Virus record (IMG/VR): IMGVR_UViG_3300042090_002000
Location: 1-64,000 of that record
DNA: 64,000 nucleotides
From: a virus
Direction: 5' to 3' (one strand)
Positions 4,371-59,330 of the stretch are shown here, one piece after another. Made by a program: the position numbers and the translations under genes. The notes beneath the pieces are model-generated. The model saw only the letters and a program-made list of their open reading frames with translations, was not told where the DNA came from and ran no database searches. Every line of letters begins with the position of its first letter. The stretch's first letter is position 1.

Positions 4371-4580
4371 ATGAATAAAATCGGCAAATTCTTTTTGGTA
4401 GTATTTACCATGGCTGGGGCAGTCCTGACTATGGAACATACGATGTATTTTTTGACGAACCCTCCCGGGATTGAGCAATGGCGCTCACTCTGCGACGTGG
4501 CCGGATCGGCGTCTCTTCTTGTGATGGCATCTCTCGCGCTCACATATCTGCGGAAACAAGACTTCTCAAACCATAAGTAG
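4371..4580 (+). CDS. Small two-TM membrane protein
   Basis: GGAG RBS; two hydrophobic segments. Confidence 0.55.
   Translation: MNKIGKFFLVVFTMAGAVLTMEHTMYFLTNPPGIEQWRSLCDVAGSASLLVMASLALTYLRKQDFSNHK
4560..4579 (+). promoter_or_regulatory. Phage-specific late-gene element GACTT-N7-CATAAGTA
   Basis: gactt-ctcaaac-cataagta; one of ~10 copies. Confidence 0.65.
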
Positions 4581-4622
4581 AGGGTTCTTCCCTCTTCAAA
4601 TATATGAACTTGCGCCGCTCGA

Positions 4623-4706
4623 ATGAGAGGGAGAAAACTATCTCCTGAAACACGAGCAAAGATGTCTGCTTCGCATCAAAAACAGGATCAAACATATGGC
4701 TCGTAA
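4623..4706 (+). pseudogene. NUMOD3 remnant of a deleted homing endonuclease
   Basis: Translates to MRGRKLSPETRAKMSASHQKQDQTYGS*, a typical NUMOD3 motif; no nuclease domain. Confidence 0.55.
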
Positions 4707-7700
4707 AATCAGTCAACAAGACCCTGCGCTCGCCATTGAATTTTTTTTATCGGGCTTCTACACCCACAGGTCGCAGCTATTCGCACCCTTCAAAGGTGTG
4801 GGCGTAAACGTCATTTCGTTCCATGACCCCGTGATTGACGGGCACAACATGGAAGACACCGATCTATACGAGTGGACGCGCCGGGCCGGGTACTCGATCT
4901 TCTGTCCTATTGCTTTGCCCGATGGGGAAGTCGTCAATCAATACTACTCTTCTCGAAATTTGAACGGCACTGTGTTGCCGTGGGTGGACACGACTCGTCG
5001 GATCGCGCTGTTCTCTTCGACCAGTCTTACAACCGTTTTGAATAAGACGACGACTGCGCAGGGGTATGTCACAACCATTGGAAACATGACCTATCTTTCT
5101 GATGGTGCTTCTGCCGATCTTATGAAATTCGACGGCACGAATTTAAGCGTGTGGGGGCTTGCGGCTCCGACGACAATCCCTACGTCGACCGGGCTGGGAT
5201 TTTGGCAACCGGATACGCACTTCAGTTTGGGAAATTCAATTCAAGATACGAACGGAAACGTGGAATCGGTTTCTGCGATTCTTGTTCCGAATGGTGCCAT
5301 TGAGTCGCCAACGGCATTTTACAACCTCGCACTCGCGGGCAGCACCGGATCAGGCTGGACCGGTACGATTGGTCCCGGCGGAACAGTTTCGAATACCGTG
5401 TCGGTGACGCCGGGATATACCGACTATGTGTTTTTCGGAAATTGTAATTTGGGTGTTCCATCAGGCGCAACGATTTTAGGCGTGGTGATCAGCATTCCGA
5501 AAGAAATTTTGGGTGGCACTGCGGTTGATGAATCTGTGAAGCTGGTAATTGGCGGAGCCGTGGCCGGTGTAGAACACGCCTCTGCGACGCCATGGAACAC
5601 ATTGTCGTTGACGAGCACCACATACGGAACTCCGACAGATAACTGGGGTGGTTTGACTCCTTCGCAGGCGAATACAAATGGTGCGGGTGGGTTTGGTTTC
5701 GCCATTGCAGCCGATGTGCTCAGCACAACGAACTTCAATCTGATACAGAGCAACACGGCAAATAATATAGAAGCATCGACCACCCTCTGCGCGTTCAACA
5801 ATCCGGTGCAAGCAGGCAATACACTGGTGGTTTGTTACGCAGGATTCAATCAATCATTCGTCTCGATTCATGACACACTGGGCACCACATACACTTTAGC
5901 CGCCACATCGATAAATGGGGAAATGACTCTGCTCTGTTTTGTGGGCCATGTCGCCTCCGGCGGCCCTAACACGGTCACAGCATCGGTCAATAATCTCCAC
6001 TTCAATTCTTTCACGGCACTCAATATCCATGAGTTCAGCGGCATCGTTTCAGTCTCACCTATCGAAGTCACGGGCACACATAATTCCTTGCCCGCTCCGA
6101 ATCAATCTCCGTTTAATACCGGAACCGTGACGACGGCGAATGCGACTGACCTGTTATTTTCTATGGTGCAGGGCGGTACTGGCATCACACAACCCGCCGC
6201 GTATACATATGCGACGCAAAATGTGGTGAATGATACTCCGGGCAGTTTTATTACGACCATTGGGACCGCTTTTGCAGCACCGGGGGTAACTGGAACATTC
6301 TCACCAGAGTGGAGTGAAGGAAGCACGGGTTTGACTGTGGCACTTAAATCTGCGCAAACAGCCACAGCCGTTATTGGGGCAGGTAGTCCCAATCTTCCGA
6401 TTGTGACGATCTATTACAAATTGCCTTCGGGTGTTGGTCCCGGCTACTCAGGAAATACGGAACCGATCTGGCCGGTGAATCTTGGCACCAGTGTGAACGA
6501 TGGTGGTCTTGCGTGGACGAACTATGGTGCAGCGGCGGTGTGGTACCCCCTTACGAACTATCCGACACCCATCGTGATTTTGGATACGAACGGATTTTTG
6601 CAACTCGCAACAGCAGTTGCGAATCCTGTTCAGCCGTGGGCCAGTGGCACCACTTACGCAGTGGGCAATGTGGTCACATTCGGGGGAAATTTCTGGATTT
6701 CCACTGTCAACTCCAACACGGGAATTGCGCCGAATGCGAACTACAGTGTGGCGGTGACATCTGGCAGCACAGTGACGACGACCGCTTATTGGGCGCTCGC
6801 AAACAACCCAGTGCAGACAGGTTCGATTGCGCCGGTGTGGAATACCACTATTGGCGGCACGACAGTTGACGGCAGCTACACATGGACGAACATCGGGCAA
6901 GGTTCACAACTCGCAGTCACGGGATATGCCTACGTCTATGCTTTCCGCACGATCTATGGGCACTTGACGACCGCGAGTCCGTACAGCAACAACACAGGTG
7001 CAATTCTGGGACCGTTGAACGGAAGCATCTCTGGGTATTCAATCACCAGCGACGTGGTGACTTTCTTTGGAAGCAACAACTTCATTCCGGGGAACGTGTT
7101 CACGGTGCAGGGGCTGACGACTGGCGTGTATTTGAACGAGCAAGTGTTCACGGTTATCTCTGCGACCGACTCGCAGATTTTCCCGCTGACTTCGGTTGCG
7201 GTGAGTGCAGATGTTCTTACAATTCAAGCAATCAACAATCTTGTGGCAGGCCAGCAGGTGACGTTCAGTAGCGTCGGCACCGCGACGTTCTTGAATGGTG
7301 TGACCGTCACCGTGTTGTCCGGTGGTTTATCTGGTACGCAGTTCGAAGCGAATTTCACGCACACGAACTATGGGCCGACCGCCGATACGGGCGACGTGCT
7401 TTTGAACGGAAGTTGGACCGCGACATTCACTCACGCAGATACAGGTGGGCTAGTCGCTGACGCTGGGCAGGCTCTCCCGCTGATATCAACGGTGACGGGG
7501 ACAGGAACGGGCTCTCCGCTCTGTAATTCCGTGGCGAACATTACCGGGTTATCCGTGACAGACAACCTCGTGACGCTGATCGCCAGCAATAATTTTCAGC
7601 CGGGGATTTGGGTCACCATCGCGGGATTGACGACCGCGACGTATCTCAACGATCAACAATTTCAGGTGATCTCTGTCGACCAATTAGTCGGCACGCAGAA

Positions 7701-9573
7701 CACCCAGTTTCAAATTTTCTTTGAGACCGCGAACTCTGTTTTCACGGCGGATTCCGGCACAGCCACATTCAACGCGGTGGAGATTTATCGCACGTCGGAT
7801 GGCGGCGGTCAGTATTTGTTCGACGGCGCTGTGACGAATCCCGGCGCATTCCTGCCGTGGACCTTTGATGATTTCGTGCCCGATGCCGATCTCGATGTAG
7901 ATTTGGAAGCGGCACTGGACGATCAGAATGATCCCCCTCCGGGCGGCCCGGGCTCGACGATCACCACAACCGTGGGTACGATCTCTGCGTACTGGAATGG
8001 GCGTATCTGGTTGGTGGTGGGCAACTATGTTTATTTCGATGCGGGACCGGATTGCACAAACGGCATCCCTGAAGAATCATGGCCCCCGGGAAATCGATTC
8101 CAATTCGCAGGGCCGGTGATTGGGTTGGAGCCGATGCAAAGCGGAGCCGGGCTGATTGTTTACTTGGCCGACCGCGTCAACGTGATTTTGGGTGGACCAG
8201 AAACGATCAGTTTCTATCCCGATGATTTCTTGACCAATTTTGGTATTGCGAATCCGAACGCGGTGTTCAAAGATGGCTCCATGCTGGGCCAGTTCACCAC
8301 ACAGGCGTACTACACGGAATTGTCTGGGCGAGAGCGGCAGGAGATCGGCGAACACATCGCGGATTATTTGTCGGAGAATTTCACCCCGGCGAAGACGTAC
8401 GTCACGATGCACCGTAATGGACTCGATGTCGGAGTCTTCGTCAGCAACGGTGTGGATCAGATCGTGCGGTACGGGACAAACATCGGGGCATGGAGTGTTC
8501 CGGCGTATCCGATTTTTGGTGCGGGTGCGTTGAATTCGGTGGAGACTTCAGTTGGAATTTACAGCTTGATGACGGCATCGCCGACTGGTGGTGTGACGGG
8601 CGCAACAGCGGCGCTCAACCCCGGTTCTGGAGTTTCGGTGACGGGCACTGGCATCGCGTGGCTCAACCCCGGCAACATTACGGCGGGGAGCCCGACAAGT
8701 TATGCGACAGTGACATTCGCTGGCGCTGCTGCCGCTTCGCAGATTTTGCGCGCTGCTGCCTACGCACTCTCGACACTACCGTCGACCGCAGTTGTGCAAG
8801 GTATTCAAGTTGCGATCACCGGAAAGCAATCTGAGATTCTAGGTGATCTTTCTTTCACTATCGCCCCAACAAACGCGGTTGCTGGGGCCACGACGCACAC
8901 GGGGTCTTTTGGGACTTCGAATACTACGGTGGTTTTTGGTAGCGCCACGGACACATGGAACATGCCTGCATGGATGATTCCGACGAATTTGGTGAACGGC
9001 GCTTTGAGTTTTGATATTACCGCAAAATACACTGCAGCCAGCACACCGGAGATGTTCATATCCGAAGTGCAGGTGACGATCACATATCAGAATCCGGGCA
9101 ACTATCTTTATGCGCGCGATATCAACTCATGGGGCGATTGCGGCGGCTTCGGCCTGAACAACGGCACGCCGTACACGGACTGCGACATTGTGTTGGGTAG
9201 CATAACGCTGACTCAGCCGGGGGCACGGTTGATGTCTCTGCAGCACATCGTTGGATATTTCGATGCGGTTGGAAATCTTGGCACGCAGGACAACGGCGGC
9301 TCATCATATCCAGAAGTTTGGGTGATGCCCAATGAAATTTCGGATACGAAGGGAATTGGATTTATTCAATTACCTGATGTGACTCAAGAGCCGCCGGTCG
9401 GGCAGAACATCCCGTCGCAATCTCTTCTCGCTTTGCGCTGGCCAGTGAACATGATGAACTCGACGCTCGCCAGCCAACTGATGCACCATTTGCAAGTGCG
9501 AATTCTGTTCAACCCGGAAAATGCGCCGAACACGATCAAGGCGCTCGCATTTATGGAGAGTCAAGAAACTTGA
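4696..9573 (+). CDS. Large tail nozzle/head-stabilisation-like virion protein with inserted beta-rich domains
   Basis: 1625 aa; beta-propeller-like segments (e.g. YWNGRIWLVVGNYVYF); located before the ejection genes like P22 gp10/T7 gp12. Confidence 0.6.
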   Translation: MARKISQQDPALAIEFFLSGFYTHRSQLFAPFKGVGVNVISFHDPVIDGHNMEDTDLYEWTRRAGYSIFCPIALPDGEVVNQYYSSRNLNGTVLPWVDTTRRIALFSSTSLTTVLNKTTTAQGYVTTIGNMTYLSDGASADLMKFDGTNLSVWGLAAPTTIPTSTGLGFWQPDTHFSLGNSIQDTNGNVESVSAILVPNGAIESPTAFYNLALAGSTGSGWTGTIGPGGTVSNTVSVTPGYTDYVFFGNCNLGVPSGATILGVVISIPKEILGGTAVDESVKLVIGGAVAGVEHASATPWNTLSLTSTTYGTPTDNWGGLTPSQANTNGAGGFGFAIAADVLSTTNFNLIQSNTANNIEASTTLCAFNNPVQAGNTLVVCYAGFNQSFVSIHDTLGTTYTLAATSINGEMTLLCFVGHVASGGPNTVTASVNNLHFNSFTALNIHEFSGIVSVSPIEVTGTHNSLPAPNQSPFNTGTVTTANATDLLFSMVQGGTGITQPAAYTYATQNVVNDTPGSFITTIGTAFAAPGVTGTFSPEWSEGSTGLTVALKSAQTATAVIGAGSPNLPIVTIYYKLPSGVGPGYSGNTEPIWPVNLGTSVNDGGLAWTNYGAAAVWYPLTNYPTPIVILDTNGFLQLATAVANPVQPWASGTTYAVGNVVTFGGNFWISTVNSNTGIAPNANYSVAVTSGSTVTTTAYWALANNPVQTGSIAPVWNTTIGGTTVDGSYTWTNIGQGSQLAVTGYAYVYAFRTIYGHLTTASPYSNNTGAILGPLNGSISGYSITSDVVTFFGSNNFIPGNVFTVQGLTTGVYLNEQVFTVISATDSQIFPLTSVAVSADVLTIQAINNLVAGQQVTFSSVGTATFLNGVTVTVLSGGLSGTQFEANFTHTNYGPTADTGDVLLNGSWTATFTHADTGGLVADAGQALPLISTVTGTGTGSPLCNSVANITGLSVTDNLVTLIASNNFQPGIWVTIAGLTTATYLNDQQFQVISVDQLVGTQNTQFQIFFETANSVFTADSGTATFNAVEIYRTSDGGGQYLFDGAVTNPGAFLPWTFDDFVPDADLDVDLEAALDDQNDPPPGGPGSTITTTVGTISAYWNGRIWLVVGNYVYFDAGPDCTNGIPEESWPPGNRFQFAGPVIGLEPMQSGAGLIVYLADRVNVILGGPETISFYPDDFLTNFGIANPNAVFKDGSMLGQFTTQAYYTELSGRERQEIGEHIADYLSENFTPAKTYVTMHRNGLDVGVFVSNGVDQIVRYGTNIGAWSVPAYPIFGAGALNSVETSVGIYSLMTASPTGGVTGATAALNPGSGVSVTGTGIAWLNPGNITAGSPTSYATVTFAGAAAASQILRAAAYALSTLPSTAVVQGIQVAITGKQSEILGDLSFTIAPTNAVAGATTHTGSFGTSNTTVVFGSATDTWNMPAWMIPTNLVNGALSFDITAKYTAASTPEMFISEVQVTITYQNPGNYLYARDINSWGDCGGFGLNNGTPYTDCDIVLGSITLTQPGARLMSLQHIVGYFDAVGNLGTQDNGGSSYPEVWVMPNEISDTKGIGFIQLPDVTQEPPVGQNIPSQSLLALRWPVNMMNSTLASQLMHHLQVRILFNPENAPNTIKALAFMESQET

Positions 9574-9625
9574 TGGCTTACATTTTACGACTTTCTATGC
9601 TATAGTATCGGCATAGGAGATCGCC

Positions 9626-10186
9626 ATGTTTGTCTATGTGATTGTTTGCAGTGAGACGCAGAAGATTTATATCGGGCAGCATAAGCGGGATGACTTGCGC
9701 CACTACCTGCAGCAGAAGTGGTACGAGGCACATAACAATGTGAAACGGCGGTCGCATTTATATGCGGCGATGCGACGACACTCACGCGAGACGTGGAGCA
9801 TTCATTCTTTGGTTTCTGGGATTGAGACGCGGGCGGAAGTTGATGCGCTAGAAAAACATTTTATTCGGGCATTGAATACGCAACACCCTGAAGTTGGGTA
9901 CAACATTTGTGCAGGCGGAGAGGGGTTTGCGGGGGAGTTTACACCTGAACATCGCGCAAAACTTCGGGCTGCGATTGCGAATCGTGATCCAGCGGCGGAG
10001 GCGGAGCGGCGAAAACAAATCAGCGAAAAAATGAGTGTCATCATGCTTGGCAACACACATTATCGGGGGAACATTAAATCGTTGTGTAAATACGGACACC
10101 CGATCACAGAGCAGTACGGGAAAAGATTTTGTTTAACCTGCAGTCGAATTCAGTCGCGGGATTGGTATCGCGCTAGAAAGGCATAA
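9626..10186 (+). CDS. GIY-YIG homing endonuclease
   Basis: FVY...KIYIG, E-K-H-FI, GYNI.AGGEG and a NUMOD-like tail. Confidence 0.85.
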   Translation: MFVYVIVCSETQKIYIGQHKRDDLRHYLQQKWYEAHNNVKRRSHLYAAMRRHSRETWSIHSLVSGIETRAEVDALEKHFIRALNTQHPEVGYNICAGGEGFAGEFTPEHRAKLRAAIANRDPAAEAERRKQISEKMSVIMLGNTHYRGNIKSLCKYGHPITEQYGKRFCLTCSRIQSRDWYRARKA

Positions 10187-10189
10187 ACA

Positions 10190-10666
10190 ATGAATCAACA
10201 GGACACAATCGTCACGCCGCATCCGGGCAAGGTTCCCAGTACGCCGATTTTGTGGCCGGTCGATCAACACAAGTCGAACCAGATTCAGCAGACCAAAGGA
10301 TCGGCGAAGCCGCTGAGTACCAGCGTGCGCCCGACCACGCAACCGAACCAATCGCGCGTCTCGCCGCGCACGACCCCGAAGCCAGTCAACACTGTGCGGG
10401 TGGTGACGAAGCCAGCGGTGAACGGACAAAAAACCATTACGGTTCAGTTCAATCACCCGGGCGGAGATCAATATTTCGCCGGGGCCAACGTCTATTTGAA
10501 AAAGGGAAAGGGCCAGCCCGCGCAAGTCGCGAGCGGAGCCAAATCCCCGTTGTCGTTTACTGTGCCCGTTAGCACGGCTCCGCATACGATAGTGATCACG
10601 AGTGTAGGGAATTGGGGAGAAACTCCTGTCTTGTCAAGCCCGTCGGCGCGAGTTCGGTTGCAGTAA
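10190..10666 (+). CDS. Hypothetical virion protein with Ig/Fn3-like C-terminus
   Basis: Beta-sandwich-like C-terminal half; within the structural operon. Confidence 0.55.
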   Translation: MNQQDTIVTPHPGKVPSTPILWPVDQHKSNQIQQTKGSAKPLSTSVRPTTQPNQSRVSPRTTPKPVNTVRVVTKPAVNGQKTITVQFNHPGGDQYFAGANVYLKKGKGQPAQVASGAKSPLSFTVPVSTAPHTIVITSVGNWGETPVLSSPSARVRLQ

Positions 10667-10671
10667 ATTAA

Positions 10672-10691
10672 GACTTCTCGTGTCATAAGTA
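10672..10691 (+). promoter_or_regulatory. Late-gene element GACTT-N7-CATAAGTA
   Basis: gactt-ctcgtgt-cataagta directly followed by RBS AGGGG. Confidence 0.7.
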
Positions 10692-10702
10692 AGGGGCAAA
10701 CC

Positions 10703-11134
10703 ATGAGCGTGTGGGAGTTTAGGTTAGCTGGGCCTGATGATGCTGCAGCGTTTAGCAAATGGATCGGGGAAAACCAACAGATTCCCGATGCGGATAAGTT
10801 GGCTGCGCTGAAGACCAACAATCCGACCATTTTGTGGTTTGTGGAAACAAAGGATGGCGTTGCCCAGACTTTTGCGCCGGTCTATTTGCAGTTTGCGGTG
10901 CCGCATCTGGGATTCAATCCCGATGCTGATTCGCGAGACATCGCAGAAGGAATGCAGCGGCTAACAGACGGGATCGCCGGTTTTGCGGTCCAGTTTGGTA
11001 TTCGCGAGATCGTCACGCTCAGCGAAGAAAAATTGCCGATGGCGCGCTGGGCCATGAAGCATGATTTCGATTTGGAAAAACGGCAGACTCTGAAATTGAA
11101 TTTGAACAAAGTAATGGCGGGTGAGGTAAAGTAA
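10703..11134 (+). CDS. GNAT-fold-like virion assembly protein (P22 gp14/T7 gp13 position)
   Basis: FRLAGPDDAAAF N-terminus, size, and synteny before the ejection proteins. Confidence 0.5.
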   Translation: MSVWEFRLAGPDDAAAFSKWIGENQQIPDADKLAALKTNNPTILWFVETKDGVAQTFAPVYLQFAVPHLGFNPDADSRDIAEGMQRLTDGIAGFAVQFGIREIVTLSEEKLPMARWAMKHDFDLEKRQTLKLNLNKVMAGEVK

Positions 11135-11135
11135 A

Positions 11136-11834
11136 ATGTGTTGCTCTGGTGGAGAAGTTAGCGCAACTGACGAGGCACTGCAGCAATCGCAAGCCGCGAT
11201 GACGAATACGTTGAATAGCGATTATTCGACGACGTTCTCAGAGCAACAGCAGTTGTTGGCAAACCAGCAGGCCCGGTTGAGTGCGATTGCAGCAAACCCG
11301 ATGGGGTACACGACCGCCCAGTTGCATGACGCAACGACTAACATTAACGAGAACACCGCAACGGCAGCCAAGCAGGCGCTGGGTGCGGCAGCCGCATATT
11401 CGGCGGGACATGGCGCGGCAGATGTGGGCAGCGGGGTTGCGGGACAGATGGCGGCTGGAATTGAATCCGGCGCGGCTCAAAGCAAAGCCATGCAGTTGTC
11501 GCAGTTGAGCCAGCAAAACGAGGCCATGAAGCAAAACAATTTTTGGAACGCTATCGGTGGCTTGAACAGCGTCGGTAGTGAACTGGGCGGTCAAGGCGGC
11601 ACAGCAATCGGTGGCGCAGGAACGGCGGCCAACTCTTCGGTGGGCGCAGGTAGCGGCGCGTTGGCGGCGCAGCAGGCAGGATGGCAAGACGTGGCCGGAG
11701 TAATTGGTGCGGTCGGCAGTCTTGGAATGGCAGGTGCTGCCATAGGCAAGGATTTTAGCGGCGGGGGCAGCACCCCCGGCACGTTCACTGGCGCGACGAA
11801 CAACAACCCGTATTTTACGGGAGACACAGACTGA
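11136..11834 (+). CDS. DNA ejection (pilot) protein
   Basis: G/A/Q-rich with a glycine-zipper-like C-terminus; synteny. Confidence 0.6.
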   Translation: MCCSGGEVSATDEALQQSQAAMTNTLNSDYSTTFSEQQQLLANQQARLSAIAANPMGYTTAQLHDATTNINENTATAAKQALGAAAAYSAGHGAADVGSGVAGQMAAGIESGAAQSKAMQLSQLSQQNEAMKQNNFWNAIGGLNSVGSELGGQGGTAIGGAGTAANSSVGAGSGALAAQQAGWQDVAGVIGAVGSLGMAGAAIGKDFSGGGSTPGTFTGATNNNPYFTGDTD

Positions 11835-17210: not shown

Positions 17211-17230
17211 GACTTTTGCTACTATAAGTA
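17211..17230 (+). promoter_or_regulatory. Late-gene element GACTT-N7-TATAAGTA
   Basis: gactt-ttgctac-tataagta. Confidence 0.65.
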
Positions 17231-21794: not shown

Positions 21795-21800
21795 AAAGGC

Positions 21801-21829: not shown

Positions 21830-21835
21830 CGCGGT

Positions 21836-45858: not shown

Positions 45859-45878
45859 GACTTTCCTTTTCTCAAATA
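45859..45878 (+). promoter_or_regulatory. Late-gene element variant GACTT-N7-CTCAAATA
   Basis: Followed by GGGGAG. Confidence 0.55.
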
Positions 45879-46293: not shown

Positions 46294-46309
46294 CTTTTTG
46301 TTCACAAGT

Positions 46310-46621
46310 ATGGACTTCACTATACCCGGAACGGATATGCTGGGACAGCCGCGTCATGGGTCGATCTATGACGAGACTGGGACTCCCGAATCTGGATACG
46401 GCGAATGCGGGCCGTACCATTGTGAAGATTGCGTTCACAAGCCCGCGCCGGATGAACCTTATTGTATCCACCCGCGCGTGGTTGACGATTTTTGTATGCA
46501 GGATAAGTTGGTTATGATCGGCGGACGACCGGCTATCAAGATCAATCTGGAGCATGGGTGCTGCCGTTTCGTACGACCCCCTGCTGAGAAATGTGAGGAT
46601 CACGAACATGGCAACAATTGA
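46310..46621 (+). CDS. Cys/His-rich hypothetical protein
   Basis: CEDCVH, CIHP, GCCRF. Confidence 0.5.
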   Translation: MDFTIPGTDMLGQPRHGSIYDETGTPESGYGECGPYHCEDCVHKPAPDEPYCIHPRVVDDFCMQDKLVMIGGRPAIKINLEHGCCRFVRPPAEKCEDHEHGNN

Positions 46622-48783: not shown

Positions 48784-48803
48784 GACTTCGGTTTCCATAA
48801 GTA
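48784..48803 (+). promoter_or_regulatory. Late-gene element GACTT-N7-CATAAGTA
   Basis: gactt-cggtttc-cataagta-ggag. Confidence 0.7.
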
Positions 48804-50359: not shown

Positions 50360-52111
50360 ATGTCGAATAATTATGTGCAGGTCCCTCCCAACAGTACTGG
50401 AGTGAAGCTGCAGACTTTTGAAAATACGATTGGTGGAAACGCTGTTGATGCTGAAGCTGTCTCTCTTGTAGACACTGCAGGTGCGTCGATACTTGGAACG
50501 GCGGGTTCTGCTAATGCAGATGTGCTAACAGTGCAGGGTATCACTGGAGCCACTGCTATTCCCATTACTGGAGCCAATGCTGCTGGAACTCAAGTCTCTC
50601 TCGCTACTCCGGTTTTAATAGCCGGAGGAGACGGTACAGATATTCGTACACTGTTGACCACCAGTAATGGTTCGCCCATTGTGGTAGGTGCGGGTAGCGC
50701 AGGAACTCCCAGTGGCGGTGTTATCACTGTTCAAGGTGTTACGAGTGGAACAGCTTTAAATACACAGGGTTTGGGAACTGCTGGTACATCTACAGGTGGT
50801 GTGCTGTCAGTTCAAGGTGTTTCCGGCGGAACCGCTGTTCCAGTCTCTGGAACTATCAGCACGATCACAAATCCAGTGACTGTAGTTGGTGATGCCGCGA
50901 ATGGTGCGGCTGTTGCGGGTAATCCGGTTCTTGTAGCTGGATCAGATGGAACTGACGCTCGTACTTTGGCAACTAATACATCCGGTCAAGCAGTTGTTGT
51001 GGGCGCTGGAACCGCAGGCTCTGCATCCGGCGGTGTTCTAACTGTTCAGGGCAGCGCTTCAGGCACTGCTATTCCTGTCGCTAACACTCCGGCATCCGGT
51101 GCGATTTTTGAAGTCTCTCCGACCACGGCTGCGAACACGACGACCAATCCGTTCTTTAATGCTGCGGGGACATTAGCTGAATCCACCGCAGCGTGGACGA
51201 GTGCGACGACTGTTAACACTGCGCTGCAAGTAAATACTGCAGGGTATACTACAATCGTTGTGACTTTGAGTCAGGGAACTACACTTACGGGCGGTGTAGT
51301 GACATTTGAAGCATCAGACACTACGGCATTTACAAACGCATATCCTGTCACTGCTATACAACTCGGATTAACTTCTGCGACGCCTACTTTAACATATACA
51401 CTAACAGCTTCTAGTAACGTATCTTTTGCTATACCTACAGCAGCCTGGGCAGCTGTAAGAGTTCGATTATCTACAGTCATTTCAGGCACAGGAACAGTTA
51501 ATATCGGAATGACGGCATCAGCTGCTCAAGATGGTGCAATTGTACAGGTAATACCGCTTCTAGTAAACACGAAAGTTAGTTCAGGTACATCTGCTACTGC
51601 AATTGCTGATAACCTAGCTAATGTCGATATTTTTCAATCTTCTACAAATCAAATTTTCGGTCTATATGTTGCTGATTCTGTCTATGGCGGTGCATTCAGT
51701 GGTACGGCCAACACCGCGCTCCAAGGTTGGAGTAAAGAACGTACTCCGACAGTCTTCAAAACGGTTCAAGCAACTGCGTCAGGTAACACTGCTGTCTGGA
51801 CTCCCGGTACAGGAAATAAGTTTCGTTTACTAAAGTTGTTTGTTGAAGTCACAGATAACGCATCATTGGCTTCCGGTGGAGTTCTGACGATCAACTTCCA
51901 AGATGCTACAACCTCAATTAACATTTCGTTCGATGTCTTTGTTCCAAGTACTGCTGTTACTACAGTTATTGGAGATGGACTTGAACAAGAGTTAGATTTG
52001 GGTAAGTTCGGAATTCTATCGGCAGCCGCTAATAATGCCTTAAATGTTAACTTATCCTCTGCCCTAGCTACGGGAAATGTCCGAGTTATCGCAATGGGAA
52101 CTGAGGAATAG
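50360..52111 (+). CDS. Putative tail/virion protein with G-T-A repeats
   Basis: Repeats G(T/S)AGxxSGGV(L/I)TVQG..GTA. Confidence 0.6.
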   Translation: MSNNYVQVPPNSTGVKLQTFENTIGGNAVDAEAVSLVDTAGASILGTAGSANADVLTVQGITGATAIPITGANAAGTQVSLATPVLIAGGDGTDIRTLLTTSNGSPIVVGAGSAGTPSGGVITVQGVTSGTALNTQGLGTAGTSTGGVLSVQGVSGGTAVPVSGTISTITNPVTVVGDAANGAAVAGNPVLVAGSDGTDARTLATNTSGQAVVVGAGTAGSASGGVLTVQGSASGTAIPVANTPASGAIFEVSPTTAANTTTNPFFNAAGTLAESTAAWTSATTVNTALQVNTAGYTTIVVTLSQGTTLTGGVVTFEASDTTAFTNAYPVTAIQLGLTSATPTLTYTLTASSNVSFAIPTAAWAAVRVRLSTVISGTGTVNIGMTASAAQDGAIVQVIPLLVNTKVSSGTSATAIADNLANVDIFQSSTNQIFGLYVADSVYGGAFSGTANTALQGWSKERTPTVFKTVQATASGNTAVWTPGTGNKFRLLKLFVEVTDNASLASGGVLTINFQDATTSINISFDVFVPSTAVTTVIGDGLEQELDLGKFGILSAAANNALNVNLSSALATGNVRVIAMGTEE

Positions 52112-52113: not shown

Positions 52114-52392
52114 ATGGCTGCAACACACACGTATGATGTCACAACAGCCAGTTATGTTGGCGATGTATGCACTATTGTAGGAACGGTCGATACAATTCCG
52201 TCAACGGGGCCTATAGCTGTCACCGTTGTACTAAATTATTCAGCAGTTACGCAAGCATGGGCCATTAGCGTGGCAAACGTAGAGGCATTAGTCGGTCGGG
52301 CTATGCTGAACGCCGCAGTTGCGAATGGGCTCCCGAATCCGAACCCACCGGCGACCGCGACGCAATTGCCGACAGGTTCATTCACGCTGTAG
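52114..52392 (+). CDS. Hypothetical protein
   Basis: GAGG RBS. Confidence 0.5.
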   Translation: MAATHTYDVTTASYVGDVCTIVGTVDTIPSTGPIAVTVVLNYSAVTQAWAISVANVEALVGRAMLNAAVANGLPNPNPPATATQLPTGSFTL

Positions 52393-52417
52393 GGTAACAA
52401 CATCGGGGAGCAGCCCC

Positions 52418-54367
52418 ATGGACAATCCAGCAACATTCGATTTCGATTCAGACATACCGCTCATCAAAAAATACCGCGAGTCCGTAGACCTTACGAACTT
52501 CCCCAAATGCTTTCTACAGGTATTCAATGATAACTGGGATCAGAAGACCCGCGACCGTTGGTATGCGGATCGATTCAAGTGTCTGAAGTACCATCTCTAT
52601 TTGGCCGGGTTCGCCGAAGAAACAAAAGACGGCGCTCCTGATCTTCCGCCGACGTACGTGCCGATCCTTGGCATGGACTTCCAGAAAAATCCTCATGAGC
52701 GTCTGTTCGCCCAGTATCTGCTGAAGCGACCCGGCGAGAACATTGTCTTGTCCGATCTCGATACGCTCACTAAGAAACGCATGATTCTGTGGCCTCGCGG
52801 TCTGTTCAAAACATCGTCGATCATCGTCGAGATTGTGCAAGACATTCTCAACTATCCGAACATCCGTATTTGCTTTTTGACCGGCGGAGACAACTTAGCA
52901 AAGCGTCAACTCTCGCGCGTGCGCCGCGTGTTCGAACGCCCCACTAAGCGATTCAAACTATTGTTCCCTGAGTTCTGTTTGGTGAGCAGGCCGCTGAAAA
53001 AACGTGGAAAGAAAAAATCGGAAGACGGTCTCGAAGATGTTGATGATATCGAGTACGATGATGTGACGCCGAAGTTTGGTACGGCGCACGAGTTCACTGT
53101 TCCGGCGCGGACAAACGACACTTTTGCTGAGCCGACGTTCGCGATTTCCACAGCGAAATCAGTTAAGGCCGGATCGCACTTTGACATGATCTTCATTGAC
53201 GACCTTGTGAACGATCAAAACTACCGCAGCGTCAAACTGCTGGAGAAGTGCTATCAGGACTATCTCGACATATGTCCGTTGCTGGAGCCCGCCGGATTCA
53301 TGATCATCACCGGAACGCGGTATTCATTCGGCGACACGTACGAGCGGTTGCAGGAGATGGCCAAGCAGGAAGAGAAAGAGCGCGGGCGCACGATTTGGAA
53401 ATTCTCTATTCGCGATTGCTGGAGCATGGGTTGCCAGAACTGCGTTCACACCGACGCGTATCATGATTACAGCATCAATGTGCTGGAGCCACCTTGCGTT
53501 GACCTGAATTGCAAGTGCCCGGGGTTTAAGGCGCGTGGAGATAAGGGCGTGCTGTTCCCGATGACCCGCACGCATGATGGACGTGAGATCGGGCACACTG
53601 TAGAATTCCTTGAGAATGCTCGACTGCAGTTGGGCGCGGAGTTTTTCGCGAACCAATATGAGAACAAACCAATCGCGACAGGCACCCAGACGTTCACAGA
53701 GGCGTTGCTGGGGAGACAAACGCTGCACCATGATGAGCAGTTGCCCACTTTTCATCAGGCGCGAACCTACGTCATCGGTGATCTGGCGTACGTGGGGCAG
53801 GAAGGGCGCGACTACTCCGTCATTTTCATTGTCCGCGTGTTCCAAGGGCAGATTTTTGTGGTCGATTGTTTCTTCGGGAACTGGGATTCGAACGCGGTCG
53901 CCGAAAATACGTTCCGAATTTTAATGAAACACCGCCCGGAGAAACTTTTTTACGAAAAATTCAATGGTTGGGAGGCATACAACAACGTCATCACGGCCTA
54001 CTGCAAGGAAAAAGGGCTTGATTCTGTGCCGCTGGAGTGGCTGAAAGGCTCGCAAGCGAACAACGCGAAGCTGATTCGGATTGGGGCCGCGAAGGGACCG
54101 CTGCAGCAACGGCGGCTTTGGTTGTTTGCCCTCATGCCGGGGTACTCAATCCTGTCAAACCAGCTTATTAAGTGGCCAAAGTTGGGGCGACACGATGATT
54201 TTGCGGACTGTCTGGGCATGGTGGTGGCCGCGCCAACGGGATACGAACAACAAAACCCACCGCAGATAGAAAATCCTCTGCATTGGCTCAATAGGTTACA
54301 CCAAGTCCAGCCCCTTGACGACTCCTACGGAGATTCTGGCTGCGGCACGGGCATCAATTGCGGGTAG
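52418..54367 (+). CDS. terL: Terminase large subunit
   Basis: Walker A-like PRGLFKTS, Walker B IFIDD, TGTRY, nuclease GDLA and HDDFAD. Confidence 0.9.
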   Translation: MDNPATFDFDSDIPLIKKYRESVDLTNFPKCFLQVFNDNWDQKTRDRWYADRFKCLKYHLYLAGFAEETKDGAPDLPPTYVPILGMDFQKNPHERLFAQYLLKRPGENIVLSDLDTLTKKRMILWPRGLFKTSSIIVEIVQDILNYPNIRICFLTGGDNLAKRQLSRVRRVFERPTKRFKLLFPEFCLVSRPLKKRGKKKSEDGLEDVDDIEYDDVTPKFGTAHEFTVPARTNDTFAEPTFAISTAKSVKAGSHFDMIFIDDLVNDQNYRSVKLLEKCYQDYLDICPLLEPAGFMIITGTRYSFGDTYERLQEMAKQEEKERGRTIWKFSIRDCWSMGCQNCVHTDAYHDYSINVLEPPCVDLNCKCPGFKARGDKGVLFPMTRTHDGREIGHTVEFLENARLQLGAEFFANQYENKPIATGTQTFTEALLGRQTLHHDEQLPTFHQARTYVIGDLAYVGQEGRDYSVIFIVRVFQGQIFVVDCFFGNWDSNAVAENTFRILMKHRPEKLFYEKFNGWEAYNNVITAYCKEKGLDSVPLEWLKGSQANNAKLIRIGAAKGPLQQRRLWLFALMPGYSILSNQLIKWPKLGRHDDFADCLGMVVAAPTGYEQQNPPQIENPLHWLNRLHQVQPLDDSYGDSGCGTGINCG

Positions 54368-54390: not shown

Positions 54391-54410
54391 GACTTCTTTC
54401 ATCATAAGTA
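54391..54410 (+). promoter_or_regulatory. Late-gene element GACTT-N7-CATAAGTA
   Basis: gactt-ctttcat-cataagta-gaggtg. Confidence 0.7.
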
Positions 54411-54420: not shown

Positions 54421-54939
54421 ATGGCGTCTTTTTACGCATATCTATGGCTCCGTGAAGATCGGACGCCTTACTATGCGGGCAAAGGATGCGGCAATCGTGC
54501 GTTTATCAAAGGAATTGGACACCGGCAGTACCCGCCGGAGGATCGTTCCCGTATTCTCATATTTCCGACTGTATCTGAGGCCGCCGCATTTGCATTAGAG
54601 CGCGCGCTGATTCGCTTTTTTGGTCGTAAAGATCGGTCTGCCGGATGTTTACGCAACGTCACGAACGGTGGTGAGGGGATTAGCGGTTACAAGCATCGCC
54701 CAGAAGCGCGCATGCGCATGGCGCAGTCCCGCATCGGCAATACATGCGGCGTCGGGTCGGTGCGATCCGACGAGTTTAAACAAAATCTTTCCGCGCTGCA
54801 TCAAGGGCGCAAATGGTCGGCGGACGCGATTGCAAAAAGAGTGGCTACACGCCGCGCAAGAGGCGGTTTTGCCTTATCCGCTGAATCACGAGCGAAGGAA
54901 TCGCTTACGAAATTTCTGAAAACGGTTGCGTGGGGATAA
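54421..54939 (+). CDS. GIY-YIG-like/NUMOD3 homing endonuclease
   Basis: YAYLWLREDRTPYYAGKG..R; LRNVTNGGEG. Confidence 0.85.
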   Translation: MASFYAYLWLREDRTPYYAGKGCGNRAFIKGIGHRQYPPEDRSRILIFPTVSEAAAFALERALIRFFGRKDRSAGCLRNVTNGGEGISGYKHRPEARMRMAQSRIGNTCGVGSVRSDEFKQNLSALHQGRKWSADAIAKRVATRRARGGFALSAESRAKESLTKFLKTVAWG

Positions 54940-54940
54940 T

Positions 54941-57175
54941 ATGGCTGACGGGAACAACTCCGATATCAAAAAAACCACCCATTTTGAAAACATGGGACAG
55001 ATGTCAATTCAAGAACTCCCCGGAGCCGTGCCTTACGGAGAGACTGCACTTCCGATTGGACAAACAGAGGTCGCTTTTGAGGATCAAAGCCGGTCAGATT
55101 TAAGCCTTATGAAAGAGGCAAATCTGAACCGCGAGGAATCAGAGAGTTTCATCGCCACTCGCGGGTTGATCGGACGTTGGAACACTGCCGAATTGATGTT
55201 GCGGGCATGGGTGGAGCCGGTTAAGTGGAAGGGTAGCGAGCAGTTCCGATCTCATCTTGGAATTCCTCTCGTCGCGGAGCAATTTTACAGCATTCACAGC
55301 GTTGTGAACCAGACTTTGTTCGGGGGATACAAAATTTTTCAGGTCGACCCGACTTCTGGCACCGATATAAAGTGTGCCGAAGCGCAACAGGCGATTTTGA
55401 ACGCACAGTTGAAGACGTGCGGTTACAAAGGCGTGTCCGCGAAGACGGAATTCCGCGAGATCACATACGACGGACTTTTTTACGGCTTCGGTGTTGCCCA
55501 TTACGGTTGGACGAAGATCAAAAAGACCACGATTAAGCGCGTGCAGAAGATGCACATGCAGACAATCTCTGTTAACGGAAATTTGGTGCAGATTCCGGTC
55601 GCTGAAGACGAAGATGATATCGAGGAAGTGCCCCACATCGTTGAAATCAATCAACCGAAACTCGAACATGTGCCGATTCGCCGCGCGCGTTACGCGCCGG
55701 ACCTTCGCCGGGCTGATCCGCGCGTTGCGGAGTGGTTCGGACGCATAATTTATTGCACTGGATACGATCTCGATGCGTTGCGGAACACCGCTGGATGGAA
55801 AATTCCGTCACGCGAGGATTTGGTGAAGATCACCACGCCGCAAATGCAGTCACAGTCGGCGACGAACCCACTGGAGACGATGGGATCGAACACAGGCAAC
55901 CCAATTTTTCAGCAAACTACTACGCCGCAGAAGGCGTATCCTGAAAATTACACTGAACGCACACAGCACGATCCGCTGGGCCGCAAATTCGAACTATTCG
56001 ATTACTGGACCGGCTTCAGGCATGTGATCGTGCTCAATAAAGAATACCCGATTCTGAACGAGACGCACAAATTCGGGCGTCCGCCGTTTTTGGGCTTCGC
56101 TTTTCGCAGCGCGCCCGACTCCGCGCATGGTTACGGCATCGCATACTGGCTGACAGACTTCCAGCGCGTGTGCCAAGGCATCATCAACGCTTATTTCGAC
56201 GATTTGAACTTGAATTTGATGGGGACTTACACATCACCCGCTGGGACAAACAACACGGCGCAGGCGCAGTGGATTTTCCCGGGAAAAGTCTTCAAAAACG
56301 ACGGCGCGAACAAGGTCGAAGCCCTTACCCGCAATTCGATTGATGCGAAAGAGCCGTTGACGATCATCGGGCAGATAAAAGCATGGGCTTCCATGATCAG
56401 TGGCGCAGGCCCGGGCACTTTGGGCTCGAATCCCGGCGCGGCTGGGGATATGCGCACTCCCGGTGGCGTCGAAGCGATTACCGGTGGCGAAAACACCAAG
56501 CTATCTGATTTGATCGACGTAATTTCGGAACAAGTGTTCGTTCCGTTCCTCGAATTCTGCATCGACGAGAATCAGAAGCTGAAGCCGTCGCAAATTCGCT
56601 CGATGCTTTCCGAAGCGTTGGGAGATGCGTTCAAAGCGACGCCGCTGGACATCATCAACGGCCAATACAAGGTGGATATTTCCGCCGGAGCGAAACTCGC
56701 GGCGCGCGAAAACATCAACAAGTTGCTGATGCTGCTGTCGTCTATTTTGCAGTCACCCAATACCGTGGAAGCCCTCGCGGTGCAGGCCATGAAGATTGAT
56801 TTCAACGCGATGTACTCCGCGATGTGCGATTCGTTCAACATTCCGTACCGCGAACAAATTTTCGTGGCACAGAACGACGAAGATAAGGCTCGCGCAGCGG
56901 CGGAGACACAACAGGCCGCAATGCAGGGCAAGGCCGGGATCGTGCAATTGCAGGGTCAAGTGAAAAAGGATATCGACAACAACCAGTCTGAAAATCGTAT
57001 GCTATTGGAGACTGGCAAACATACGTTGAAAGAGCAGGGCAAGGGATCGGACCAGCAAAACGATTTGGAACTGCAGCGCGAGAAGGCCGCAGCCCAAACG
57101 CCGGTGGCGCAGGGATTGGACCGCGCGACCAAAGGTGAGTTTGCCTCCCTTGACAAGACGGCGTTCGGACAATAA
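54941..57175 (+). CDS. Portal protein
   Basis: ~745 aa after TerL; DGLFYGFGV, PF, HGYGI and PGKVF features of podovirus portals. Confidence 0.8.
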   Translation: MADGNNSDIKKTTHFENMGQMSIQELPGAVPYGETALPIGQTEVAFEDQSRSDLSLMKEANLNREESESFIATRGLIGRWNTAELMLRAWVEPVKWKGSEQFRSHLGIPLVAEQFYSIHSVVNQTLFGGYKIFQVDPTSGTDIKCAEAQQAILNAQLKTCGYKGVSAKTEFREITYDGLFYGFGVAHYGWTKIKKTTIKRVQKMHMQTISVNGNLVQIPVAEDEDDIEEVPHIVEINQPKLEHVPIRRARYAPDLRRADPRVAEWFGRIIYCTGYDLDALRNTAGWKIPSREDLVKITTPQMQSQSATNPLETMGSNTGNPIFQQTTTPQKAYPENYTERTQHDPLGRKFELFDYWTGFRHVIVLNKEYPILNETHKFGRPPFLGFAFRSAPDSAHGYGIAYWLTDFQRVCQGIINAYFDDLNLNLMGTYTSPAGTNNTAQAQWIFPGKVFKNDGANKVEALTRNSIDAKEPLTIIGQIKAWASMISGAGPGTLGSNPGAAGDMRTPGGVEAITGGENTKLSDLIDVISEQVFVPFLEFCIDENQKLKPSQIRSMLSEALGDAFKATPLDIINGQYKVDISAGAKLAARENINKLLMLLSSILQSPNTVEALAVQAMKIDFNAMYSAMCDSFNIPYREQIFVAQNDEDKARAAAETQQAAMQGKAGIVQLQGQVKKDIDNNQSENRMLLETGKHTLKEQGKGSDQQNDLELQREKAAAQTPVAQGLDRATKGEFASLDKTAFGQ

Positions 57176-58065: not shown

Positions 58066-58091
58066 CTGCTGACATCTTATTACATGTTTTT

Positions 58092-58111
58092 GACTTCCTG
58101 TTTCATAAGTG
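58092..58111 (+). promoter_or_regulatory. Late-gene element GACTT-N7-CATAAGTG
   Basis: Upstream of the scaffold gene. Confidence 0.65.
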
Positions 58112-58140
58112 TATGTTGATTTTGAATTGAGGAGCATTCG

Positions 58141-59223
58141 ATGAGCACAACTCCGGCACCACTCAACGTTGAGATGAACGAAGAACTGCTGAAAGCGATC
58201 AATGCGTCGCTGGACCCAGAGCAGTTGAAGTCTTCTATTTTGGCTGAAGCCCAGAAACAGCTTGCCGCCAATGAAGCCGCCAACGCAACCCACAAAGCGG
58301 AGCAGGAAGCTGCTGCCGCCCGATTGGCTGAAGCCCAGCGCGCGGCGGCTGCAGAACCCACGCAGTTCAGCCACACAGAGAATATCGCGGGCAAGGATTT
58401 TATCTTTACCGGTGCATCGCAGGCTGAGATCGACTCGCAAGTCGCTGCGGCCTATCGCGTGGCTTTTGCGATTCAGCAACCCACAGAGCAGGCTGAACCA
58501 ACCGTTGACCCTGCGGTCGCGGCTGCTGCTGCGGAAGCTGAAGCTGCCGCAAAGATTGCGCTGCAGGAACAGTTCAGGAACGGTACCATCTCCGCCGAAG
58601 AGTACCTTGAAAAATCAGGCGCGATCAACAACTATCTCGAAAGACAGGGGCTTTCCGTCGAAACCCTCAAAGCCACTGTCGAGCATTCGCAACTGGACCC
58701 ATGGGTTCACGCCACCGATCAGTTCCTGCAAGGCGCTGGTGCGGACTGGCCGGGCGGTGACAAGAATCGCGAAATCTTGGGCCTGCGCATTCAGGCACTG
58801 GGGCTTGTCGACGCCGAAGACAAAGTTGCTGCCATGTCGCAAGCGTGGAATGACATGAAGCGTGACAAGATGTATTTCCCGGCAGGACACCCGCTGGCTG
58901 CTGCAGCGGCTCCTGAAGTCGTGACTGATTCTGCCGCTGCTCCTGTTGTTCCGCCTGCTGCGGTTCCGGCCCCGGTTGTTCCGACGGCTCCGCCAGCGCC
59001 CCCGGCACCGCCCGCTCGCGCCGCCGCATCGTCGTCTTCGCTCTTTGATCGAAGCACCGGCGTCGCTGATTTCGTCGCGCAACCAGACAAAGCCAAACCG
59101 GCAGAGTTTGTCGTGCCCGATAGCGCCACGCCCCAGCAAATCATGGATGCGTACAAAAAGTTTCAAGTTGCAAACGGCCTCGATCCAAACTCTGCGTTCA
59201 TGCAGCAATATCGCGGCAAGTAA
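58141..59223 (+). CDS. Probable capsid scaffolding protein
   Basis: Acidic, A/P-rich, helical; lies before the MCP. Confidence 0.65.
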   Translation: MSTTPAPLNVEMNEELLKAINASLDPEQLKSSILAEAQKQLAANEAANATHKAEQEAAAARLAEAQRAAAAEPTQFSHTENIAGKDFIFTGASQAEIDSQVAAAYRVAFAIQQPTEQAEPTVDPAVAAAAAEAEAAAKIALQEQFRNGTISAEEYLEKSGAINNYLERQGLSVETLKATVEHSQLDPWVHATDQFLQGAGADWPGGDKNREILGLRIQALGLVDAEDKVAAMSQAWNDMKRDKMYFPAGHPLAAAAAPEVVTDSAAAPVVPPAAVPAPVVPTAPPAPPAPPARAAASSSSLFDRSTGVADFVAQPDKAKPAEFVVPDSATPQQIMDAYKKFQVANGLDPNSAFMQQYRGK

Positions 59224-59310
59224 GCCACCCCTTGGTATTTCTCTCCGTTAGGCGCGTGAAGGGGTCGTGAAATAGCGACCCCCGCGCAGCCCCTCCCAAA
59301 AAAAGTTTTT

Positions 59311-59330
59311 GACTAACGAATCCATAAGTG
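59311..59330 (+). promoter_or_regulatory. Late-gene element variant GACTA-N7-CATAAGTG
   Basis: Upstream of the HNH-MCP unit. Confidence 0.6.

Follow-up and report, generated by a model that had tools for sequence, protein, structure and literature searches.

A bipartite sequence motif with a 7-nt spacer as the probable promoter of rightward units in a clade of soil and wetland phages, with an HTH–NusG protein as candidate reader

The first 64,000 nucleotides (nt) of the IMG/VR virus record IMGVR_UViG_3300042090_002000, hereafter the window, carry a two-block motif, GACTT-N7-CATAAGTA with its variants, repeatedly just ahead of rightward genes. What does this motif do, and which protein reads it? 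The original prediction described it as a phage-specific late-gene element of about ten copies, with transcription starting at or near its last purine. Our analysis suggests that it serves as promoter for the middle and late units transcribed rightward in a phage clade, read by the host RNA polymerase redirected by a phage factor. That the motif is a promoter is very probable; the whole explanation, including the redirected host polymerase, is reasonably probable.

The window is part of a linear record of 77,724 base pairs (bp), here called G000, that is ~78% complete according to CheckV. An exact-pattern scan of viral contigs for the motif returned mostly single chance matches, and the contigs with at least two matches turned out to be relatives. 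One of the relatives, G007, is a viral contig of 96,667 bp and 97% completeness, and its portal protein is 74% identical to that of G000. The others are G011, G013, G014 and G016–G019, of which G016–G019 are 96–100 kb long and 97–100% complete, with terminal repeats in G019. G000 is colinear with G007 but lacks ~19 kb (G007 23.1–42.2 kb: a helicase with an intein, a nuclease, a primase-helicase and the adaptor). All genomes compared are metagenomic. The genes were called crudely as the longest open reading frames (ORFs).

The consensus of the motif is GACT(T/A)-N7-(C/T)ATAAGT(A/G), with an A/T tract just 5′ and a purine-rich GAGG just 3′, and the whole signal covers ~30 bp. The window contains 11 copies, all on the + strand and nearly all intergenic. 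Ten of these were already listed in the original prediction and were all found in place, among them two with a spacer of 6 nt (19945, 46292) and one with CTCAAATA (45859); the eleventh lies at 36740. With up to two mismatches allowed, GACTT-N7-CATAAGTA occurred nine times, always on the + strand, where 0.54 matches were expected (at most 2 in a shuffle). The last 13.7 kb of the 77.7-kb record had no copy. A weight matrix was built from 47 strict copies in five contigs and applied to nine related contigs (669,830 bp), five of them the training contigs. It gave 98 matches on the coding strand and one on the opposite strand, with about one in simulated sequence; the four contigs outside the training gave 44 and 0. 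In the window, seven of the nine matrix matches lay wholly within the 7.7% of the record outside called ORFs, and the other two overlapped only doubtful small ORFs. The motif is thus not equally frequent inside genes and on both strands, which the original prediction had named as a sign against it.

The spacing of the two blocks was rigid. Of 78 strict copies, 75 have a spacer of 7 nt and three one of 6 nt; a spacer of 8 nt did not occur. Promoters of the sigma70 type have hexamers like TTGACA and TATAAT, 16–18 nt apart; with only 7 nt between its blocks the motif is, as the original prediction stated, not such a pair. The base 5′ of the first G was A or T in 47/47 strict sites, and positions −3 and −4 were A or T in 46/47, which bears out the A/T-rich tract of the original prediction. 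In the profile of these copies, A or T fills the three positions next to GACTT. The spacer of the 47 copies was poor in G (17 of 329 positions), its last base was C, and it showed no pairing pattern. CATAAGT was followed by A (32 of 47) or G (15 of 47) and then by G-A-G-G. In relatives with proteins 55–75% identical, the orthologous sites kept both blocks and the exact 7-nt spacing while the spacer sequence drifted, and at least seven window sites have a copy with a changed spacer at the orthologous place in G007. This conservation agrees with a phage-specific transcription signal. More distant relatives kept GACT(T/A), and the second block drifted by lineage (CATAGAT, CATGAGT, TATAGGT, TATAATT) with A14, T15 and T19 nearly fixed. 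The number of copies per genome was 10–16.

The RNA data came from contigs at least 99% identical to the phage in four wetland metatranscriptomes of four studies, with 29 of 64 contig records listed. In run X1, four of the eight listed contigs start at 46330, 48829, 58134 and 59343, which is 20, 26, 23 and 13 nt past the last motif base. In run X2 a contig starts at 59340, and the starts at 59340 and 59343 thus come from two studies. Over all runs, 5 of the 29 listed left ends fall within 30 nt 3′ of a motif (10–26 nt), at four sites (P = 6.6e-6). Over the head-protein unit, RNA depth rises abruptly to 50x at 59343; it drops off at ~62.1–62.5 kb, near a terminator at 62063–62090. The contig breaks are not repeat-assembly artefacts, because the motif copies share no 31-mers, and the very uneven RNA cover argues against contaminating DNA. 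Window parts without RNA contig cover (e.g., 52963–54264) carry no evidential weight.

The layout of the genes behind the motif points to the start site. A start codon occurs within 20 nt 3′ of the motif in 30 of 47 strict copies, usually with GAGG or GGAG directly after the motif, as the original prediction had noticed for several ribosome-binding sites. Such a Shine–Dalgarno sequence must be in the mRNA, so the RNA begins at or before position 21. GAG or GAA also follows 10 of the 17 copies that have no start codon nearby, which fits a preferred initial transcript. At 46292 the final A of the motif is the A of the ATG at 46310, and this leaderless layout, also read earlier, is kept in five genomes: the start codon (ATG or GTG, then GAC) abuts the motif in G000, G007, G011, G016 and G018, which leaves no space for a ribosome-binding site. 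The product has conserved N-terminal residues. This layout requires a 5′ end at motif positions 19–22. Because of the Shine–Dalgarno position, the leaderless gene and the RNA contig starts 10–26 nt downstream, the last purine of the motif is most likely the transcription start, a placement read mainly from the sequence; the earlier assignment of the start is thus supported indirectly. With +1 at position 20, GACTT would occupy −19 to −15 and CATAAGT −7 to −1. Upstream of the + strand units that begin with the copies at 19945 and 36740 there is no gene on the + strand. Together with the A/T tract 5′ of the motif, this argues for a promoter rather than a site acting in RNA.

Which polymerase could use such a promoter? 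A search for the T7-like RNA polymerase family PF00940 in G000, G007 and G016–G019, with E values of up to 10 allowed, came out empty (T7 genome as positive control, 9.9e-110). Six-frame searches of G000, G007 and G011 gave no match to Sigma70_r2, r4 or r4_2. Of 27 Pfam families over 122 ORFs, the 25 that were listed include neither an RNA polymerase nor a sigma, and the Pfam and PHROG families given for the full set of ORFs (25 of 93 PHROG families listed) include nothing sigma-like. Pattern searches for the T7-type B and C motif pair and for a DFDGD-type motif found none that was conserved outside DNA polymerase. Pfam searches of ten leftward-strand proteins, including a 185- and a 188-amino-acid (aa) protein of sigma-like size, revealed no sigma but a small tyrosine-recombinase fold. 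The 772-aa protein is a family A DNA polymerase by Pfam and PHROG. The 1625-aa protein is a mosaic whose relatives share 12–55% of its length, some with PF11999, PF13385 or PF02839 (CBM_5_12); this suits a receptor-binding or tail protein, not a polymerase. Sequence searches of the PDB with the 772-, 462-, 1625-, 650- and 579-aa proteins gave nothing useful besides weak KOW matches. The absence of an RNA polymerase or sigma, previously noted for the window, thus extends to the whole record and to relatives at least 97% complete. The host polymerase is the likely enzyme of the motif-bearing units, and since the phage has no RNA polymerase and no recognisable sigma, it must be redirected.

The best candidate for the redirecting factor is a 462-aa protein encoded by an early gene on the − strand (17793–19181). 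It carries a helix-turn-helix (HTH) domain like sigma region 4 (residues ~92–154), a second HTH (~168–239), a NusG N-terminal (NGN) domain (~283–388) and a KOW domain (~392–446). The sequence itself gave weak KOW and NusG matches. In the AlphaFold2 model (predicted local distance difference test, pLDDT, 78.8), the NGN and KOW module matched NusG, Spt5 and RfaH in Foldseek (E ~1e-5, probability 1.0), with VIA-align Z scores of 8.4–8.6 and a root-mean-square deviation (rmsd) of 2.7 Å over 96 residues. The modelled order, NGN followed by KOW, is that of NusG/Spt5 proteins. Residues 92–154 of the model align with region 4 of ~20 different sigma factors (Z 5.4–6.8, rmsd 0.9–2.7 Å), and the second HTH had weaker structural matches. 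At the fold level the protein thus has a region 4 HTH, and the reading of duplex DNA is predicted. Of the HTH-HTH-NusG architecture proposed originally, the first HTH and the NusG part are clear at the fold level, and the second HTH is less so. No Sigma70_r2 match and no region-2-like fold among the structural matches was found for this protein; having no region 2, it is not a member of the sigma family, although the NGN domains of its relatives contact the same surface of the polymerase.

The distribution of the 462-aa protein also makes it a candidate. Its gene was found in 6/6 relatives compared, and most neighbouring early genes were not shared; it is the only sizeable early protein common to all of them. 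At least 140 close relatives occur in phage contigs of ~97–107 kb in public data. A profile search of 1.8 billion representatives showed that both halves also occur as stand-alone proteins. One stand-alone relative of the N-half, P0147, scored 25.9 bits on Sigma70_r4_2 (cut-off 25.7); others were near threshold on Pfam Phage_antitermQ, and relatives of the C-half had weak NusG and KOW matches. Single queries with the stand-alone halves found no viral loci. We put the chance that the 462-aa protein reads the motif, as its predicted domains would allow, at somewhat below even.

The proposed mechanism would run as follows. The host sigma-A holoenzyme would transcribe the leftward early operons from TTGCAA-17-TAnnnT promoters, and one of these would yield the 462-aa protein. 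Its tandem HTH domains would then bind the motif; the rigid 7-nt spacer fits a single protein that contacts both blocks. The NGN domain would hold RNA polymerase, and the motif-bearing units would be switched on. Transcription would start at the last purine and produce mRNAs with the Shine–Dalgarno sequence at the extreme 5′ end or, for one gene, leaderless. The factor might stay bound as an antiterminator for the long units.

A further-reaching form of this mechanism, which we consider rather doubtful, is that the 462-aa protein is a new initiation factor that replaces sigma on bacterial RNA polymerase. NGN domains bind the clamp helices and the gate loop of RNA polymerase, and some of them read the non-template strand, as RfaH reads ops (PMC7819879). 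By analogy, the NGN domain would hold the beta-prime clamp helices (the site of sigma region 2) and read non-template CATAAGT at −7 to −1, as RfaH does at ops in a paused complex, while duplex GACTT at −19 to −15 would be the target of the sigma-4-type HTHs; afterwards the factor could remain on the polymerase as a built-in antiterminator. If true, replacement of sigma would account for the start abutting the block and for the rigid spacing. A start abutting the block fits an NGN domain that reads the non-template strand just upstream of the active site.

Several points weigh against the explanation that a redirected host polymerase reads the motif. The -10-type elements of the bacterial multisubunit polymerase end ~6–7 nt before +1. 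A start directly after a conserved block is unusual for this enzyme and typical of single-subunit phage polymerases. The RNA evidence consists not of mapped 5′ ends but of assembled contigs, which carry no strand information and cannot show true ends. G000 is only partly complete, which weakens the absence of a polymerase or sigma; the relatives of 97–100% completeness mitigate this. The sigma-4-like matches are modest (Z 5.4–6.8 over ~60 residues) and those of the second HTH weaker still. The protein is linked to the motif by co-occurrence in one clade, timing and domain content alone. To our knowledge, all NusG paralogues act in elongation, not initiation. Moreover, in 61 viral loci (4–463 kb) of more distant phages that have a stand-alone HTH-HTH protein (L160–L220), the motif was rare, with 28 weak matrix matches, many of them the same stretch in near-identical loci, and four unique strict ones. 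We could therefore not carry the link between protein and motif over to phages outside the clade. At the sensitivity used, only 2/61 of these loci had a NusG-half gene at a distance of up to 10 kb, 1.7 kb downstream on the same strand (e.g., L170, 1419–2147 and 3847–4443). In ~10 near-identical loci (L202–L214), GACTA-N7-CATTAATG was seen directly after the HTH-HTH gene, near 10749.

A start that abuts the block is the behaviour of single-subunit polymerases, and for this reason a hidden phage enzyme stays a rival: the motif would be the promoter of an unrecognised RNA polymerase, either a very divergent single-subunit, a split or a non-canonical two-barrel enzyme among the proteins of no known function. 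The layout is T7-like: all copies lie on one strand and between genes, and an A/T tract is followed by GACT, by an A/T-rich block up to the start site and by an initial transcript rich in purines. The TATAAGTA copies match the yeast mitochondrial nonamer, a resemblance of sequence only, and many ORFs without assigned function could harbour a polymerase. Against this, PF00940 was blank in six records, two of which are 100% complete by estimate or terminal repeats, although the T7 control was found, and neither a B and C pair of the T7 type nor a DFDGD-type motif was conserved outside DNA polymerase. Among the large proteins, the 1625-aa protein is a mosaic with carbohydrate-binding-type domains, the 772-aa protein is a DNA polymerase, and the other large unknowns are 27–42% conserved. 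We regard a hidden polymerase as improbable. The same low probability is given to a loading site of the RfaH ops or lambda Q QBE (Q-binding element) type, at which the HTH–NusG protein would board a polymerase started upstream and make it resistant to termination along the long rightward operons. All NusG paralogues characterised so far work in elongation or antitermination, and a particular DNA element close to the beginning of the operon recruits them (PMC7819879); the stand-alone N-half relatives come near the Phage_antitermQ threshold, and the rightward genes form a very long array with few interruptions. But there is no conserved promoter upstream of the motif sites, and at 19945 and 36740 there is no upstream + strand gene. 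The RNA contigs start just past the motif instead of running through it, with a jump in depth there, and without a 5′ end at the motif the gene at 46310 could not be leaderless. A promoter and loading site combined is compatible with our preferred explanation.

The motif could also act in RNA, as a cleavage site of a sequence-specific endoribonuclease or a translation signal, where polycistronic transcripts are cut ahead of each ribosome-binding site. It is strand-specific and lies directly 5′ of ribosome-binding sites, ACUU and AAGU could pair as a 4-bp stem, and RNA contig ends do not separate processing from initiation. This possible stem is only 4 bp long and invariant, so that no covariation is seen, and the G-poor spacer has no pairing pattern. 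The A/T tract and the strict 7-nt spacer of drifting sequence fit a DNA-binding protein instead, and the copies that head units have no upstream transcript to be processed. A role in RNA is accordingly very improbable. No better placed is a host alternative sigma, of the extracytoplasmic function (ECF), sigma-28, sigma-54 or a similar type, that would read the motif without a phage factor. GACTT is reminiscent of the AACTT of ECF −35 elements, and the 12-nt offset of the blocks resembles the −24/−12 geometry. The 7-nt spacing, however, fits no known sigma family, and the GG and GC dinucleotides of sigma-54 promoters are absent. The motif is also specific to the clade and was absent from the distantly related cultured phage Tunturi_3. 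We hold such a sigma to be the least credible of these possibilities.

As a promoter, the motif is the phage's own class for most rightward units. The copy at 4560–4579 (39.4 bits; ortholog at G007 44172), of the GACTT-N7-CATAAGTA form, lies 116 nt 5′ of the gene of the 1625-aa modular virion protein (4696–9573). A hairpin, GAGGG-ttctt-CCCTC, was seen directly 3′ of it (4580–4600), and it is kept with an altered loop at G007 44192–44210; it could be a 5′ stabiliser of the long mRNA of this gene. The copy at 10672–10691 (ortholog at G007 49719) occupies the 36-nt gap between the genes at 10190–10666 and 10703–11134, with a Shine–Dalgarno sequence directly 3′, and heads a run of structural genes from 10703. 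A CTATAAGTA form at 17211–17230 (25.8 bits) heads the small genes 17237–17452 and 17461–17796. The N6 variant GACTT-N6-ACCAAATA at 19945–19963 stands back to back with a leftward early promoter and heads the gene from ATG 19979. A weaker copy, GACTT-N7-CATAAACA at 36740–36759 (19.4 bits), lies 10 nt 5′ of ATG 36770, the first gene of a rightward block. The CTCAAATA variant at 45859–45878 (18.6 bits) heads the gene 45892–46293, and the N6 variant at 46292–46310 provides the last A for the in-frame ATG of the gene 46310–46621, with an RNA contig from 46330. The genes at 17237, 19979, 36770, 45892 and 46310 are small and of unknown function.

The remaining copies, all on the + strand like the others, lie between 48784 and 59330. 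A perfect copy at 48784–48803 heads the gene from ATG 48818, in the unit before the terminase region, with an RNA contig from 48829. Another perfect copy at 54391–54410 lies between the terminase large subunit gene (52319–54367) and the gene of a 172-aa protein followed by the portal gene (54926–57175); its orthologs are at G007 92455, G011 47601 and G014 11246. A CATAAGTG form at 58092–58111 heads the 360-aa gene in scaffold position (58141–59223), with an RNA contig from 58134, and bears an extra upstream element, CTTATTACA, at 58076. Such an element, CT(T/C)(A/G)TTACA(G/T), was seen at 14 motif copies, 4–7 nt 5′ of GACT and thus at about −35 to −26 relative to the presumed start, among them window 58076–58096 and G007 34283, 75687 and 95689, with copies in all nine related contigs. 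It may mark a stronger or separately regulated subclass of promoters. The GACTA...CATAAGTG copy at 59311–59330 heads the unit of the major head protein (59892–60812), with RNA contigs from 59340 and 59343. This unit is closed by a strong intrinsic terminator on the + strand (62063–62090; 12-bp stem and T run). G007 has a further copy 5′ of a 158-aa gene, behind which a PD-(D/E)XK nuclease and a primase-helicase are encoded. The name late-gene element is thus too narrow, because the motif also heads units of small genes of unknown function and, in G007, the nuclease and primase-helicase unit.

Other promoters serve the other genes. The leftward genes have ordinary TTGCAA/TTGACA-17-TAnnnT promoters, often with a GTAC-N4-GTAC palindrome. 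One of them, TTGCAA-17 nt-TATTCT on the − strand (19879–19907), was read from the sequence ahead of the leftward operon whose last gene encodes the 462-aa protein, and has a GTAC-type palindrome just 5′. The palindrome was observed directly 5′ of the −35 of sigma70-like promoters (TATTGC-N17-TAnnnT), mostly of leftward units, at window 16584, 26869, 34733 and 36079, at record position 73242 and at eight sites in G007. By its sequence it looks like the operator of an early-gene repressor that would mark a second promoter class. The recombination and replication genes at 63–77 kb of the record had no motif copy and appear to use sigma70-like promoters, for example one at 62960–62988 and a GTAC-boxed TTGACA promoter at 73242. 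The former is a near-consensus TTGACG-17-TATGAT promoter with TG on the + strand, ahead of the recombination and replication block. A near-consensus promoter, TTGACA-17-TAGAAT, lies on the + strand at 60832–60860, just 3′ of the head-protein gene, and RNA contigs start from ~60650–60750. Generic sigma70 and terminator scans showed no overall enrichment.

The functions of G000 were assigned by Pfam and PHROG matches. The portal (54926–57175), like the adaptor protein, is of the SU10/phiEco32 type, and the terminase large subunit and the major head protein were assigned in the same way. Further matches were GroEL, RecA, ERF, SSB, an SLT lysozyme and the family A DNA polymerase. The major head protein is 90–96% identical across relatives, an unusually strong conservation compared with the portal (70–75%) and the terminase (~59–66%), and its transcript is the most abundant in the metatranscriptomes (50x). 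Eight to ten ORFs of G000 match endonuclease VII or HNH-type homing endonuclease families (PHROG, Pfam PF02945), unusually many paralogues for a 78-kb record. A 583-aa ORF just 5′ of the terminase gene (50360–52111) has an atypical GC pattern over its codon positions (0.32 at the third, where ~0.6 is found elsewhere). Most relatives do not have this ORF, which probably was inserted recently. In G007 a 1917-aa ORF with DUF7178 (5563–11316; L118) was found, which G000 does not have, and a Hint/intein module inside the UvrD-type helicase gene (20927–23293; L119). A megablast search of the terminase and portal region against cultured phages had no match, and a protein query with the capsid region found no relative in viral contigs. 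The closest cultured phage by portal was the Tunturiibacter phage Tunturi_3 (24.7% identity), with a different gene order; it had no annotated polymerase or sigma, and no motif in the matrix scan. This portal relationship is a weak lead to the host.

The motif is a practical marker for annotating transcription units in a large clade of soil and wetland phages. What is unusual is the combination: a bipartite signal with a rigid 7-nt spacer, a probable start abutting the block as in single-subunit polymerases, and neither a polymerase nor a sigma encoded. The sole obvious transcription protein joins DNA-reading domains of the sigma type to NusG, a fusion not described so far, and our literature search found no paper on the motif or on a sigma-4–NusG fusion. 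NusG is the one transcription factor common to all life and is so far known only for elongation. For the 462-aa protein the motif offers a concrete candidate target of ~30 bp. If the link is true, the protein would either act as a loader like Q or RfaH that brings a DNA-binding module of its own, or provide a way to promoter-specific initiation that does not depend on sigma.

The proposed action of such a protein can be compared with known factors. RfaH/ops, LoaP, UpxY and ActX/PrfaH share NGN and KOW with the candidate reader and are recruited by a specific DNA element that heads long operons (PMC7819879). These known NusG paralogues have no fused HTH domains and act on the elongating polymerase inside the transcribed leader, whereas the motif appears to lie at the start site itself; it is not an element inside a leader behind a separate upstream promoter. 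Lambdoid Q, like the proposed reader, binds a DNA site (QBE) in or next to the late promoter and modifies the host polymerase, and the near-threshold Phage_antitermQ matches of the N-half relatives point the same way. Q uses a normal sigma70 promoter with a sigma-dependent pause at one site per genome; the motif has 10–16 sites per genome and no sigma70 hexamers. T4 MotA/AsiA is similar in that an early phage DNA-binding protein reads a box replacing the −35 contact at a fixed spacing to a downstream element. The MotA box, however, lies at −30 with a normal sigma70 −10, the spacing and the inferred start of the motif differ, and no MotA or AsiA homologue was seen. Compared with sigma-54 promoters (GG at −24, GC at −12; TGGCAC-N5-TTGC), only the block offset of ~12 nt is similar, and the invariant parts of the motif are GACT and ATAAGT.

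In T4 late promoters (TATAAATA; gp55, gp33, gp45), as proposed for the motif, a phage-specific A/T-rich box replaces the host −10/−35 pair without a −35 element, and the host polymerase is redirected by phage proteins. The motif differs by its second upstream block at fixed spacing, its box sequence and its inferred start, which abuts the box and in T4 lies ~6 nt downstream. A gp55- or gp33-like protein was not detected among the families listed for the ORFs (25 of 93 PHROG families listed). The parallels to the T4 late box and the yeast mitochondrial nonamer drawn in the original prediction appear to be resemblances only. The gp36-dependent middle and late promoters of phiEco32 have AATGTA centred at −11.5 (PMC12276001). 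phiEco32 shares with this phage the SU10/phiEco32-type portal and adaptor, as well as early genes on host sigma70 promoters and middle and late genes on a short phage-specific element. Sequence and position of the motif are different, and the six-frame Pfam searches revealed no sigma like gp36, with its regions 2 and 4. The promoters of T7, T3 and SP6 resemble the motif in their length (25–30 bp), single strand, intergenic position, A/T-rich upstream part, GACT core, A/T-rich block ending at the start (as is likely for the motif) and purine-rich initial transcript. They are conserved throughout, whereas the motif has seven unconserved bases between its blocks and no T7-like polymerase gene beside it. 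Thus, the motif is set apart from all three systems by its spacing, its sequence and the lack of gp55, gp36 or a T7-like polymerase, but it works like the middle and late promoters of T4, phiEco32 and the T7 group, a kind of phage-specific signal that is already known.

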